A DNA stretch of 64,000 bases from Myxococcota bacterium (GTDB lineage: Bacteria; Myxococcota; XYA12-FULL-58-9; JALHOP01): NCBI GenBank assembly GCA_022842935.1, contig JALHOP010000014.1:58053-122052 (forward strand), given 5' to 3'. Positions 51,259 through 58,468 of the stretch are shown piece after piece. The stretch's first letter is position 1. Each line of letters begins with the position of its first letter. The notes below the pieces were generated by a model. It ran no database searches, was not told the DNA's origin, and was given only the letters and a program-made list of their open reading frames with translations. The translations under genes were made by a program, and so were the position numbers.

Positions 51259-51792
51259 TCAGCCGTTTTCGCGGACGTATTTGGCGAAGGCTTCGGAAGC
51301 CTCGCGCGTTCCCGCGATTTGTCCAACCCAGGTCTGTACATAGCGGAAGTGACTGCCGTCGAGCGCCTCGTGGGCGAGGGCGACGGCCCAGCAGCCCACC
51401 GGGTAGGCAATGTGTTGCGAGGCGCCCGCGAGGAGAAGACGGCCGAGTTGCTCGATTTCCTGATTCACGTCTGGCGGTAGGTCGCGGCGCTCTTTGCCAA
51501 AAAGTGAGCGCCCGAACACCTTGTCACCGAAGGTCGCGACGAACTGTTCGGCCACACTCCGCGCATTTTGGGGATTCGCGCCAAGAGCGATGGCCATACC
51601 GGCGATGCTTGCAAGTCGCAGCTTACGCTCCGCGGGCGGCAGCGGGGACCCTGCGAACATGCCAGTGAAGCTGCCGATGGCCGCGACGCGCATCAATGCG
51701 AACGATACCATGAAGCGCGCGCCGTCGTCGCGCCCGCCGATCGCCGTGTCGTAGAGATCTCGCGCCAGCTCGATACGACGTGCCAACGCCAC
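51259..51792 (-). CDS. Hypothetical protein immediately downstream of the giant protein gene (immunity-position gene); N-terminus is chimeric with the sigma-factor C-terminus repeat
   Basis: 177 aa. GTG start 8 nt after the giant-protein stop. First 18 aa (ALARRIELARDLYDTAI) are encoded by repeat 51739-51790. Confidence 0.55.
   Translation of the reverse strand: MALARRIELARDLYDTAIGGRDDGARFMVSFALMRVAAIGSFTGMFAGSPLPPAERKLRLASIAGMAIALGANPQNARSVAEQFVATFGDKVFGRSLFGKERRDLPPDVNQEIEQLGRLLLAGASQHIAYPVGCWAVALAHEALDGSHFRYVQTWVGQIAGTREASEAFAKYVRENG
51739..51790 (-). repeat. Direct repeat copy (about 45-50 bp) matching the 3' region of the sigma-factor gene at 57284-57330
   Basis: 36 of 39 nt identical in the core, with identical codons including non-preferred CGT/CGA/GAT. 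Encodes RIELARD(L/F)YD(T/K)AI. Confidence 0.55.
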
Positions 51793-51799
51793 TGCGCTT

Positions 51800-54700
51800 C
51801 TACGAGCCGGGAAAATCGAGGGGCGGGAGGTCGCCCGCCGGGGTGCGCGACTCCAGCACGGACTGGTTGCCGGGGCCCACAGGGTCGAAGTTCGCGCGGA
51901 TCTCGAGCCGCCCGTTGTTCATCACGTAGGTGAAGTTCTCGGCGTTGTTGTCGACCACGAAGCGACCCGGAGCTACGCTGTCGAGGTGCGCCTGGTACGC
52001 CTGCGCGCGCGCATTGGCGAGCGCCCATGCCTCGGTCTGCAACTCGACAGGCAGTTGCGAGAACAGCGTTCCCTGGGCGTAAGGCGTCACGAGCGTACCG
52101 GCCTGCGTACCCAGGCGAGCGGTGACGACTTCGGCGAATCCGCCCTCGCGCAGCAGCGCGTGCGCCAGCACTTGCTCGGCCGCCACCGTCGAGAGGTCGG
52201 TGCCCGCGGCGAACGCCTCGGGAAGGAGCGTCTTGGTGACACCCGTCGGCCCCATGATCGCAACGCTGAAGGAGCCCTCGAAAACGGTGCCCACTGGAGG
52301 AGGGACGTTCTCGACCAGGGTCATGGTCTTGGGCATGAGTGCCCGGACGCGATCGAGCATCGCCGCCTCGTCTGCCGCCATGCTCGCGCCCGCGCCGGTG
52401 CCAAGCATCATGTCGAGGGGAACGATCCGACCGTCTGGGGTGAGCATGAAGTCACCAGGCTGCACGTCGCCGAGATATCTGCCGGTAGCGCGCACTTGCT
52501 CGAAGAAATCGCTGACAGCCTTGAGGTGCTGCTCGGTGACGGGGAACGGCAGGGCCCCGTTGGACGCCAAGGCCCGCTCGGCGCTCAAGAGGTCGATCCC
52601 ATCGACGCGCTCGAGCGTGAAGCCAATCTTCCACTGTCCGTCGACCTCGATGCGCACGAAGTCGCCGACCTTGGGACCGCCGAACGCTTCGAGCGCCTTC
52701 TGGGCATTGTAGTCGGTCATGTCCTTCACGTTGCCGAGACCCATCGGCGTCTTCACGACCGTCCCGTCGTTCGCCACCCAAATGTCGCTCGTACCACCGG
52801 TGCCCCTGTTCAAGTTCACGCCGGTGTTGGCGATGGGGGGATATCGGAAGATGGTGTCGAGATCCGCGAGCGTGTCGGTGATCGACCCGGTGCCACCTCC
52901 TGAGACGTGGGCGTTGAAGGCATCCAACTTGGCCTGGCGCAGAACGGGGTCCGTCTCGTTCGACAGACGCGCCAGCTGCTCAGGCAGTCCCATCTCCAAG
53001 GCGACGTTGTTGACGGTTGCGGCGTCGGCGTGGCGCAGCGCGGCGAGCACGTCTTCGCTCGCGCCATTGCGAGCAAGGGCGTCGATGAGCACCTGCTCGG
53101 GGGCTTTCCCGGAGCCCACCGCCCTGAGGAAGTCGGCTTCGCTGATACCGAAGGCCTCCCCACCGATCTCCATCGCCTCTCGGCCAATCGGCGACAGGCT
53201 CGACGCGTCGATCGCAGCGCGGCCCACGTCGGTGGCCACCGTTGTCGTGGCCGTGGTGGTACCGGTCGCGACACTTTCGCCGCGCGCTGTGAGGCGGGCC
53301 AACTCGTTCGCCTGTTCAGCCACCGACAGATAGAGCGGAGAGCCGCCGCTCGCGGCGCGCAACGTGGCCGCAGCTGCATCGTCCGCGAGCGGCGCAACCT
53401 CGGAGCCGACGCGGAACGCGCCCTGAATCTCGAACGCCGACTTCACCACCGCCTCGCCGAAACGTGCGAGACCCTTGGGGATCGTCGACAACGCGCCAAA
53501 TGCGACCATGACGGCGGATACGCCACGATCGACGGCACTGAGCTGTGCGCCGGTGTTCGGGTCAACGCCATTCGCCAAACGGTAACTGTCGTTGAGCGGG
53601 AGAATCACCTCCTTGAACAGGAAGTTCAGAACCGGATTGTTCTTCACGGCGATGACGACGTCGGGAACCGCGGTGGTCGCCATCAGCTGACCCAGCGTGT
53701 CCAGACGTTGCAGCATCGTCATGTTCGAGCCGTCGGCATTCTTGCCGCTCTCGAGGAGCGAGAAGAGCGCCGCCGCCGTGCGATCCCTGTCGGCGATCTC
53801 CGCGGCTGTCCTCGCGCCAGCTGCGTCGAGCGACGCCTTCGCCGAGCTCAGGGCGCCCGACAGCGCACCAGCCGCGACCACGAGCTTACCCTTCAAGAGA
53901 TCCCAAGCGCCCTCCTCGAGAAGAACGCCGTCGCCACCAAGCTGGTCCCTAAGGTCGGTCAGCGCCGCGTCGCCAATCGTGAGGAAGCCCAAGTTGCCAT
54001 CGGCCACGAACTGCGTGACCGAGCTCAACCCCGCCTGCCCGTCGGGAGTGAGGACCGTGCCCATACGCTGGCCCGCGAACTCGTACTTACCATCGCGCAG
54101 CACGTACACGTCGGCACCGCTCGAGCCCTCGTCCAAGGCCGCGCCGTCGGGGCTAAGAATGATCGCGTTGCCGCCTGGAGCGCGCATCACGACCCCTTCA
54201 ACCATGCGCCTGGTTCCGTCGGGGTCGGTGACGACCTGCACCACGGTCTCGCCGGTCGCGAGGGGCCTGTTCGCGATGCCCGCAAGAGCGTCGAGCGAGG
54301 TACCCGCGGCCGTCAGGCTCGCGGCGTTGAGCGGAATGGCCACGTAGTCGGTGCCATTTGCATCGACAGTGAGCTGTCCGTCGGCTCCAACGATCATCCC
54401 GGCGCGCAGCGAGTCGAGCGACAGGGTCACTGGGCCATTCGGCCCGTCGATCGTCACCGTGACGTTGTCGGCGGTGAGCTCCAGACTCGCGCCGTCGCTC
54501 GTCGTCAGAAGCTGCCCCGTTCCGCCGCGGAACAAGTGCATCGGCAACAGCGCGACGGCTTCGTCACCGTCAGGACCAGAAACGCGTCGCAGGCTGACTT
54601 GGCCCGACAGTGAATCTTCGCCGGCGAGCTGGACACTGACGCGGAACAGGGAGCTCTCTGCTTGCGCGAGCAAGCCATCGAGCCCTGGCACCGACGCGGT

Positions 54701-56995: not shown

Positions 56996-57217
56996 GGACG
57001 CCACCTCGGGAAACGCTCGGGTCGTGCATGCTGAGCGGGCACGGCCCGTGCTCATAGGGGTGCGGCGACGCCGACCTCTATGGATGGTACAGAGCGGCTC
57101 CCGACCCTGGTGGCTGGGGTGCGCTGACAGTCTGACGGGCCGTCGCGCCATCGCATGGGCATGACGCGAGGCCATGTGGGTGTATGCCGCACTCGACTCC
57201 GGACGCGAGGGGAGTGG

Positions 57218-58468
57218 CTATCCGGAGAGCCTGCAATCTCTTCGCCGAGTCAGCACATCGCGCTCGAGCGGCGGCGCGAGCGCGATCGCCTTGTCGTAGA
57301 AATCTCGCGCTAGCTCGATACGCCCCGCCCGTGCATTGAGGTCGGCGTGTGTCGCCAGCCAAAGGTGCGAGCCGGTGAGCCATGTCGGCGGCTGCATCTG
57401 ACGGAGGCGCGCAAGACCGGCCTCCGGTCCCTGGGCGTAAGAGGCCGCGACCGCCGCGTGGAGCGCGTGCAGTGGCGACGCGTCGAGCGCCGCAAGACGA
57501 TCGTAGATCCCCACAATCACGCCCCAGCGCGTCTCCGCAAAGCTTGGAGCGAAAGCGTGCTCGGCCGCGATCGCCGCTTCGAGGTGCCACACCGACGGCA
57601 ATCTGGTGTCGCCCGCGTCTGTCGTGCTCGCCTGCTGGAGTAGCGCGAGACCATGGCCCAGCTCGTCGACGTGATAGCGCGTCCGATCCTGGTCTTCGAG
57701 CAAGACCGGCCGACCGTCTTCGTCGACGCGGGCGTCTCGCCGTGCATGGTGCAAATGCATGAGCGACAAGAGTGCCAGTGCGTTGCTCGAGCAGAGCTGC
57801 GCGTGTTTCGTCACGAAAGAGGTAAGGCGAATCGCTTCCCGACAGAGCTCGAGCTTGAGTAGCTTCTCGCCACTCGACGCGAAGTAGCCCTCCGTAAACA
57901 TGACATAGAGCATGCGGAGCACAGCGTCGTTTCGCTCGCGCAGCGCGTCGCCCCCGAGCTCGGCCCCGATATCGATGGTCGAGAACGCGTCACGGGCTCG
58001 TTCGAAACGCTTCTGCACGTTGTCTTCAGTGGTCACGAGGCGCACCGCGATTTCGCGCGTGGAGAAGCCAGCGAGGGTGCGCAATGCGAACACCAACTGC
58101 GATGGCAGTGGGATCGACTGGTTGGCGCACGCATAGAGCGCGCGAAGCTCGTCGTCATGGACGTCGTCACTCAGTGAAGGCTCGACCTCATGTGTTTCCG
58201 CTTCTTGCGCGAGCAGAGGTTCGTGTCGTCGCGTCCGACGAAGCTCGTCGACGACGCGGTGGTAGGCAGCCCGATGCAACCACGCACGCGGCGAAGGGGG
58301 TGGCCCGCGCGTCGTCCAAGCGCTCAGGGCCTCGAGCATCGCCTGGCTCAAAGCGTCTTCGACGATCGCAAGCCGTGCTCCACCGAACCTGCGAATCAGC
58401 GCGGCCATAACGCGCCCGTACTCGTGTCGCAGCACGAGCGTGAGCGCGCCATGGACCGTTTCAGTCAC
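57218..58468 (-). CDS. ECF-type sigma-70 family sigma factor with long C-terminal extension
   Basis: 416 aa. Region 2 (YGRVMAALIRRFGG) and region 4 HTH (LVFALRTLAGFSTREIAVRLVTTEDNVQKRFERAR), plus about 240-aa helical C-terminal extension. Confidence 0.75.
   Translation of the reverse strand: MTETVHGALTLVLRHEYGRVMAALIRRFGGARLAIVEDALSQAMLEALSAWTTRGPPPSPRAWLHRAAYHRVVDELRRTRRHEPLLAQEAETHEVEPSLSDDVHDDELRALYACANQSIPLPSQLVFALRTLAGFSTREIAVRLVTTEDNVQKRFERARDAFSTIDIGAELGGDALRERNDAVLRMLYVMFTEGYFASSGEKLLKLELCREAIRLTSFVTKHAQLCSSNALALLSLMHLHHARRDARVDEDGRPVLLEDQDRTRYHVDELGHGLALLQQASTTDAGDTRLPSVWHLEAAIAAEHAFAPSFAETRWGVIVGIYDRLAALDASPLHALHAAVAASYAQGPEAGLARLRQMQPPTWLTGSHLWLATHADLNARAGRIELARDFYDKAIALAPPLERDVLTRRRDCRLSG
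57284..57330 (-). repeat. Direct repeat copy inside the 3' end of the ECF sigma factor gene
   Basis: See 51739-51790. Confidence 0.55.

Follow-up and report, generated by a model that had tools for sequence, protein, structure and literature searches.

There is good support for a recombination scar at the distal end of a giant toxin-like gene in the DNA analysed here, a 64,000-nucleotide stretch from a Myxococcota bacterium (GenBank assembly GCA_022842935.1, contig JALHOP010000014.1, positions 58,053 to 122,052 of the forward strand), referred to below as the window. The order on the minus strand is a YCII-family gene, an extracytoplasmic function (ECF) sigma factor gene, a spacer, the giant open reading frame (ORF) and a 177-aa ORF (ORF177); a convergent TLC-like gene on the plus strand then follows. 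A short segment of the 3' region of the sigma factor gene occurs a second time just past the toxin stop codon, within the 5' end of ORF177. The origin we favour, at roughly even chances, is illegitimate or one-sided-homology recombination that accompanied the arrival of the toxin gene, proceeded without a dedicated recombinase and was probably followed by a deletion. The features that carry the argument are these:

57218-58468, minus strand: ECF sigma factor gene, 416 aa, ECF42-type, with a DUF6596/TPR-like C-terminal extension (assigned from Pfam matches and an orthologue alignment)
57283-57329 (core 57283-57322), minus strand: R2a, the copy read as native, in the 3' part of the sigma gene, encoding GRIELARDFYDKAI, which forms a helix in the TPR-like extension at the C-terminus
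56996-57217, minus strand: non-coding spacer of 222 nt from the sigma stop to the toxin start, without a codon-position GC pattern
51800-56995, minus strand: giant polymorphic-toxin-like gene, ~1,730 aa, starting at 56995 or 56989 (ORF as called 1791 aa, 51800-57175)
51738-51784 (core 51738-51777), minus strand: R2b, the copy read as derived, 15 nt past the toxin stop codon and in frame in the 5' end of ORF177, encoding RRIELARDLYDTAI
51259-51792, minus strand: ORF177, 177 aa, GTG start, with a helical core at residues ~55-175 (51268-51630) and an extension (residues 1-54) that contains R2b

A repeat finder recovers R2 as a 47-nt direct repeat with 87% identity, and in-register comparison narrows the match to a 40-nt core, outside which similarity drops abruptly on either side. 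On the minus strand the core reads CGTATCGAGCT[G/A]GCGCGAGAT[C/T]TCTACGACA[C/A]GGCGATCG. The preliminary description of this DNA, made from the sequence alone, had pointed out a near-identical stretch in the sigma 3' region and at the 5' end of the 177-aa gene. That stretch is real, although the coordinates given were off by a few bases and the count of 36 identities in 39 positions becomes 37 in 40. Its further statements that both copies lie in frame, one in the sigma gene and one in ORF177, and that the giant ORF (51800-57175) lies between them on the same strand, are likewise correct. When the 40-mer is searched with up to three mismatches, the window yields only these two sites, and 100 shuffles that preserve dinucleotide content yield none; by a simple binomial calculation, ~1.5e-8 such pairs would be expected per window. 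R2 was absent from the viral contigs searched. The longest exact runs within the repeat are 11-12 nt, so it would not have misled an assembler.

The sigma factor is an ordinary member of its group. It carries Sigma70_r2 (PF04542), Sigma70_r4_2 (PF08281) and DUF6596 (PF20239), its orthologues also have TPR matches in Pfam, and the arrangement expected of ECF42 is complete: sigma2 and sigma4 regions, a TPR-type C-terminal extension of ~200 aa, and a YCII/DGPF-type neighbour, here the YCII gene at 58471-58821. The R2a peptide, GRIELARDFYDKAIALAPPLERDVL, falls within the motif G-x4-A-x3-Y-x2-A-I-A-L-A-P-P-x-E-R, which is kept throughout an alignment of 20 orthologues and at the three loci that were read directly in genomes. 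It had been recognised from the outset that a conserved peptide motif, together with codon bias, might by itself account for the nucleotide match. The motif is indeed conserved, yet the DNA of the orthologues agrees with R2a at only 23-27 of the 40 positions, compared with 37 for R2b. R2b is therefore a true duplicate and not a product of convergence, since its identity to R2a far exceeds what motif conservation and codon bias bring about. Directly after R2a the sequence continues as genuine, orthologue-like sigma factor (ALAPPLERDVL). Judged from these comparisons of sequence, the sigma copy is the original and R2b is a copy of this lineage's own sigma gene. The C-terminal extension of ECF42 proteins has been reported to be essential for activity (PMC8999054; bioRxiv 10.1101/2019.12.11.873521), and the retention of an intact sigma 3' end fits that role.

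ORF177 starts 7 nt past the toxin stop codon, and R2b lies 8 nt downstream of its GTG; alternative internal starts are found at 51711, 51693 and 51660. A word-indexed protein search with ORF177 finds ORF177 alone, and exact-protein look-ups for it and for the sigma factor returned no identical record. A full HMMER scan of 1.84 billion representatives recovered nine remote homologues (E 8.5e-14 to 8e-4, 128-359 aa). The family core begins after 11-30 residues in the short homologues and after 54 in ORF177, which places the R2b-encoded residues 5-18 outside the family domain. In an AlphaFold model the core reaches a confidence score (pLDDT) above 90, residues 1-50 only 52-67, and residues 2-17 are predicted to form a helix. 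Codons 19-44, right after R2b, look coding, with a GC content at third codon positions (GC3) of 0.88 and the order GC3 > GC1 > GC2. The proposal that ORF177 is a chimeric gene with a sigma-derived 5' end is thus plausible: R2b sits in a lineage-specific extension outside the core and is followed by coding-like codons, although the length typical of the family speaks for a later start, as discussed below. The homologues occur after rpsR-rplI (L047), between unknown genes in Peregrinibacteria (L048/L049), on a tiny contig (L050) and in a run of small unrelated genes (L051), and in these contexts none of the neighbours resembles either of the toxins in the window. These contexts give no backing to the idea that ORF177 may be the immunity protein of the giant toxin, for which the tight spacing to the toxin stop codon is the sole argument. 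A PDB fold search gave no informative match. The homologues (proteins P0122-P0130) outline a small unannotated helical family with a core of ~120 aa and the motif ...IE..G..LL.G...F.VG..A..L......F......WVG.W...; it is scattered, with one member in Candidatus Peregrinibacteria and one protein that carries two tandem copies.

A second repeat pair, R1, brackets the only other toxin-like gene of this type in the window:

42745-42859, plus strand: R1a, the first copy, at the 3' end of a 604-aa EEP-family gene (41060-42874)
42902-45225, minus strand: bracketed cargo, a 456-aa toxin-like gene (43855-45225) and a 299-aa GT4-like ORF (42902-43801)
45408-45523, plus strand: R1b, the second copy, still readable as an EEP C-terminus that ends in a stop codon of its own; it holds the first ATG (45443) of an M3 peptidase ORF in another frame

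The R1 copies (42745-42859 and 45408-45523) match over 114 nt with ~86-87% identity and one indel, and the duplicated block includes the EEP stop codon and 14 nt beyond it. By our own reading R1a would include the C-terminal D-H catalytic motif of the EEP family, the Pfam match spanning residues 301-403 only. Nucleotide self-alignment of the whole window, a check that the preliminary description had called for, returned just six non-palindromic matches by blastn; R1 (42745-42855 with 45408-45519, E = 1e-26) and R2 (E = 3e-9) are among them, as are two matches between adjacent ORFs near 1-3.7 kb and one between the two toxin N-termini. R1 and R2 are thus the window's only strong repeats that do not lie between paralogous coding sequences. 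The N-terminal domain of the toxins is present in exactly two copies by tblastn, one in the giant gene and one in the 456-aa gene, with 59% identity over ~90 aligned aa, and R2 brackets the former while R1 brackets the latter together with the GT4-like ORF. Read in the orientation of the duplicated gene, both loci have the same layout: a gene with an intact 3' end, the cargo, a copy of that 3' end, and a co-oriented gene that starts in or next to the copy. The resemblance to the 42.7-45.5 kb arrangement, already remarked on, therefore stands in that the two brackets enclose the sole two toxin genes with the shared domain, and differs in two details: the toxin gene shares the orientation of the duplicated gene at the sigma locus but is antiparallel to it at the EEP locus, where the copy overlaps the start codon of the downstream gene in a different reading frame. 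Coincidence is very unlikely as the cause of the shared arrangement.

The substitutions in R1 indicate how its copies have fared. Counted in the EEP frame, 8 synonymous differences fall on 22.2 sites and 7 non-synonymous differences on 73.8 sites, a ratio of non-synonymous to synonymous differences per site (pN/pS) of ~0.26 that is seen in none of the other five frames. Neutral divergence of both copies is rejected (p = 0.011). This is what would be expected had at least one copy, and possibly both, diverged as working coding sequence. GC3 along the sigma and EEP genes gave no sign of a mosaic, except for lower GC3 in the last 40 codons of EEP.

Relatives place the variable part of the locus downstream of the sigma gene. 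The nearest sigma orthologue has 74% aa identity, and synteny ends at the YCII-sigma pair. In six orthologue contexts this pair is the conserved unit and the downstream genes are all different: a DM9 protein in one, a DUF4214-like protein in another, and in Sandaracinus amylolyticus (CP070225) a Suv3-type helicase whose gene converges on sigma and lies 12 nt past its stop, besides others. None of the six contains a toxin, an ORF177 homologue or a TLC-like gene, and it would fit these contexts that the toxin gene and ORF177 are lineage-specific additions on the variable downstream side. An empty site was sought through a sigma search of genome contigs and proteins, the six orthologue contexts and a metagenome scan with EEP, and none was found. 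The metagenome contig LNFM01049600.1 (L008; 2,909 nt) is 100% identical to window positions 40224-43132 and already carries the insert at the EEP locus, which independently confirms the junction between R1a and the insert and indicates that the organism was present in that metagenome.

We propose that the toxin gene came to lie behind the conserved YCII-sigma pair through an event that left a recombination scar. One candidate resembles homology-facilitated illegitimate recombination (HFIR), described in Acinetobacter and Streptococcus pneumoniae, in which one homologous anchor and one illegitimate joint integrate foreign DNA with no need for functions encoded by an element and can yield a donor 3' end, the cargo and a displaced resident fragment. 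The incoming DNA would have consisted of a sigma 3' end and the toxin gene; a crossover within sigma would have anchored it, and its far end would have joined illegitimately in the resident sigma 3' region, pushing out the resident fragment. A template switch during replication is the second candidate. A secondary deletion would then have taken the rest of the displaced sigma 3' end, and the surviving fragment, in frame 8 nt past the GTG, would serve as a leader or N-terminal extension of ORF177. An event of the same kind may account for the EEP 3' end that is duplicated on either side of the second toxin gene (42.7-45.5 kb). The one-sided-homology model explains R1 in one step, including the end of similarity near the stop codon. 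The likeness to HFIR is one of layout, and it differs in that the sigma locus would need an extra deletion.

Several observations weigh against this proposal. The last 65 nt of the sigma gene, which should follow R2b, have left no trace at the DNA or protein level (a 'PPxER' match reaches a shuffle p of 0.08). The 3'-end displacement put forward in the preliminary description predicts exactly this segment, and in its simple form it fails; HFIR, target duplication and integration at an attachment (att) site all then need a deletion, or else a multi-step template switch. In the R1 test, a model with one free and one constrained copy (p ~0.12) is not separable from one with both constrained, as donor and resident alleles would be, and the three differences in R2 are too few to inform a substitution test. 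Translation of ORF177 from M45 (ATG 51660) would give the family-typical length and leave R2b untranslated. Were ORF177 the cognate immunity gene, a scar between it and the toxin gene would be unexpected. Composition does not mark the toxin gene as foreign: its GC content is 0.67 and its GC3 0.84, against local backgrounds of ~0.64 and 0.75-0.83. Finally, no empty site and no close relative was found, so that both the arrival of the toxin gene by insertion and the direction of that insertion are inferred.

Among the other explanations, the one that survives best is a long target-site duplication, made when toxin DNA was captured by end joining and fill-in at a staggered double-strand break or as a local tandem duplication by replication slippage, in which the copies, identical at first, diverged and part of the distal copy was later deleted. 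It explains R1 as well as the one-sided-homology model does, since a 114-nt duplication that includes the EEP stop codon and 14 nt leaves both EEP and the 5' region of the M3 peptidase gene intact; such a process would give duplications of variable length and leave no element ends, and the R1 substitutions are compatible with one constrained and one free copy. At the sigma locus it does less well, as R2a continues as genuine sigma sequence, so that the duplicated block does not abut the insert and an extra deletion in the distal copy is needed. A divergence of 7.5-14% would moreover make these events old, but nothing else has decayed. We consider this origin unlikely.

It is improbable that the duplication had nothing to do with the toxin gene, that is, that short-patch gene conversion or selected recruitment gave ORF177 a sigma-like TPR helix, perhaps so that it could bind or mimic the C-terminal extension of the sigma factor, and the bracket arose by coincidence. 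Both copies keep the frame and code for a TPR-type helix, a helix is modelled at ORF177 residues 2-17, the codons after R2b are coding-like, and ECF42 extensions have been proposed to work through protein interaction (PMC8999054). Conversion requires prior homology, however, and the homologues of ORF177 have none; the N-terminal part is modelled at low confidence, and the second repeat pair brackets the only other toxin paralogue, which makes a coincidence unlikely.

Less probable again is the site-specific integration of a mobile islet, with the repeats as attL and attR of a tyrosine or serine recombinase that targets gene 3' ends and whose gene was later lost or works in trans. Such an islet would leave foreign-looking cargo between direct repeats taken from the 3' region of a host gene, and the host gene itself intact. 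Family searches of the ORFs in and beside either bracket, however, found no integrase, transposase or other recombinase. Searches for terminal inverted repeats and for ends or upstream regions shared by the two inserts scored at background, and R1 and R2 have no motif in common. The ~68-aa toxin N-terminus is the one similarity between the two loci; a near-collinear match of 33 nt (E = 0.1) is noise. The repeats are imperfect (92% in R2, 86-87% in R1) and of unequal length, and the expected remainder of the displaced sigma 3' end is missing after R2b. A transposon would be recognised by inverted or conserved ends, a transposase and a duplication of fixed length, and an integrase island by an integrase gene and a common att core with a displaced 3' end; neither set is present, and the duplications measure 47 and 114 nt. 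A dedicated mobile element is therefore disfavoured, and the common insertion mechanism suggested earlier finds no counterpart in the two repeat pairs, which share neither ends, inverted repeats, a recombinase gene nor a motif.

An assembly artefact, in which metagenomic contigs were chimerically joined at a shared short sequence, is least credible of all: the contig is apparently metagenome-derived and an identical 2.9-kb contig exists in a metagenome, but the exact runs within the repeats are far below assembler k-mers, frames and GC3 are continuous over the junctions, and the junction between R1a and the insert recurs in the independent contig L008.

A broader idea, which we think improbable, is that this myxobacterial lineage repeatedly seats toxin genes behind tightly packed core genes, at their 3' ends, through a recombinase-free process that duplicates 40-115 nt of the host 3' end. 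If it were so, the host gene would stay intact, the downstream gene would gain a leader or N-terminus, and the repeats would permit later loss of the toxin gene through RecA. With the toxin gene lost from the sigma locus, the sigma gene would run in frame into ORF177, and the sigma factor would lack its conserved last 21 residues.

The giant gene itself is recognisably of the polymorphic-toxin kind, and its parts are as follows:

56786-56989, minus strand: N-terminal domain, ~68 aa, common to the 456-aa protein (45022-45225, minus strand)
53447-53608, minus strand: PT-TG pre-toxin domain (PF14449), residues 1190-1243 of the 1791-aa ORF
51803-53446, minus strand: C-terminal ~548 aa past PT-TG, the presumed toxin region, without a family match

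In the 1791-aa ORF, codons 1-62 show no coding pattern (GC by codon position 0.66/0.71/0.71), and similarity to the second toxin-like protein begins exactly at the ATG at 56989, so the start is placed at 56995 or 56989. The PT-TG match (E 3.8e-8, 33.6 bits against a Pfam cut-off of 23.5) bears out the toxin-like character first suspected from the sequence. PT-TG reportedly belongs to the polymorphic-toxin classification of Zhang, Aravind and co-workers. Architecture and PT-TG are what suggest a toxin; family searches of the giant protein recognised neither a secretion or trafficking domain nor a toxin domain, and its last 548 aa had no match in Pfam, NCBIfam, PDB, PADLOC or PHROG. For the last 367 residues, a single-sequence AlphaFold model is unusable (pLDDT 36), and motifs in the C-terminus that may be kinase-like are an impression only. 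The shared N-terminal domain (consensus MQVxSPTGxxxTVxDxNxVYDANN..IGxVDxSSGxYxANDG) belongs to no Pfam family, and none of 5.8 billion proteins matched it in a word-indexed search; it is possibly a trafficking domain of a new kind. Internal tandem repeats of no known family lie ~162 aa apart in the giant protein (56049-56102 and 56535-56588, minus strand; ...FVTxTV...GLS...AY...DG.VG...). The last ~13 toxin codons contain a hairpin that resembles a terminator, GGCGGGCGACCTCCCGCC and then a T-rich run (51821-51839, minus strand), ~20 nt before the stop; it does not exceed shuffle expectation, and neither did the promoter and terminator scan. If real, it would part transcription of the toxin gene from that of ORF177.

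Comparison with known systems sets the locus in place. With polymorphic toxins of the PT-TG type it shares a very large protein with a paralogue-shared N-terminal domain, internal repeats, PT-TG and a long variable C-terminus, and a small ORF that starts 7 nt after the toxin stop. It differs from them in having no recognised secretion, trafficking or toxin domain, in a downstream ORF whose homologues are not linked to toxins, and in the lack of orphan toxin-tip and immunity arrays. Displacement of orphan C-terminal tips and their immunity genes occurs in Rhs/CDI loci: incoming DNA pushes a 3' fragment along, and the next ORF then comes after a short repeat of the gene upstream. A displaced 3' fragment behind the new DNA would be common to both, whereas here the fragment comes from a neighbouring housekeeping gene (sigma or EEP) rather than the toxin gene and is only 40-114 nt long. 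Like genomic islands that occupy the 3' end of a tRNA or protein gene, the two loci have cargo bracketed by direct repeats derived from the 3' end of an intact target; unlike them, they have no integrase, the repeats are imperfect and mutually unrelated, and no displaced 3' end continues.

In general terms, then, the giant gene is a known kind of polymorphic-toxin gene beside an ordinary ECF42 sigma operon, and the kind of scar is known in principle. Only two aspects are unusual, namely that such scars occur at both paralogous toxin genes and that neighbouring genes have taken them up at their 5' ends. If the favoured origin is right, a toxin gene was wedged between packed core genes without mobile-element machinery, and the leftover scar became the 5' end of a neighbour, a small concrete case of the birth of a chimeric gene. 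The locus also adds a polymorphic-toxin N-terminal domain without detectable relatives and an unannotated small helical protein family. It represents no new class of system, and the mechanism is inferential, with two examples in one metagenome-derived genome.

The remaining features complete the locus:

58471-58821, minus strand: YCII-family gene, the conserved partner upstream of sigma (same pair in L001, L006, L052 and L053)
58863-58889, minus strand: promoter-like motif TGTCGGAAnC-N8-TCGTwCGCT upstream of YCII, the sole match in the window
50031-51236, plus strand: convergent TLC-type transporter-like gene (Pfam-type family search), which closes the locus

Together with sigma2 and sigma4, the DUF6596/TPR-like extension and a YCII gene directly upstream, a motif ahead of the pair is a further likeness to the ECF42 group. 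Four distantly related genomes (that of the window, L006, L052 and L053) have the motif ahead of their YCII-sigma pairs, and it is probably the autoregulated ECF42-type promoter. The sigma gene itself is ordinary; what differs from the group is that a search of the window found no such motif ahead of either toxin gene, so there is no evidence that the sigma factor drives the toxin directly. Transcription of the toxin gene by read-through from the sigma gene is possible.

At the EEP locus, the GT4-like ORF has a conserved N-terminal strand, LRFLVVFSHN, upstream of its first canonical start (TTG 43801), and its frame is open back into the region of the toxin stop (42902-43857, minus strand); it may be a pseudogene or use an unusual start. 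The ATG of the M3 peptidase ORF in R1b (45443) would put a 27-residue stretch ahead of a lipoprotein-type signal, FFFGLSIFSLTLAAC (45443-45523, plus strand); the true start may lie elsewhere. The C-terminal half of the 456-aa protein (43855-44601, minus strand) has a sub-threshold match to Tox-PLDMTX, a dermonecrotoxin fold of the papain-like type (E 0.015; 15.9 bits, cut-off 26.1).

Elsewhere in the window, Rfam gave no match in 40-60 kb. A 36-nt palindrome (89%) lies within the TLC-like gene at 50579-50614, and perfect 20-nt palindromes are found at 20757-20776 and 59706-59725. Two adjacent ORFs of ~490 aa (583-2046 and 2303-3751, plus strand) share segments with 78-81% nucleotide identity (1097-1221 with 3243-3367, and 1927-1989 with 3632-3694) and look like tandem paralogues.

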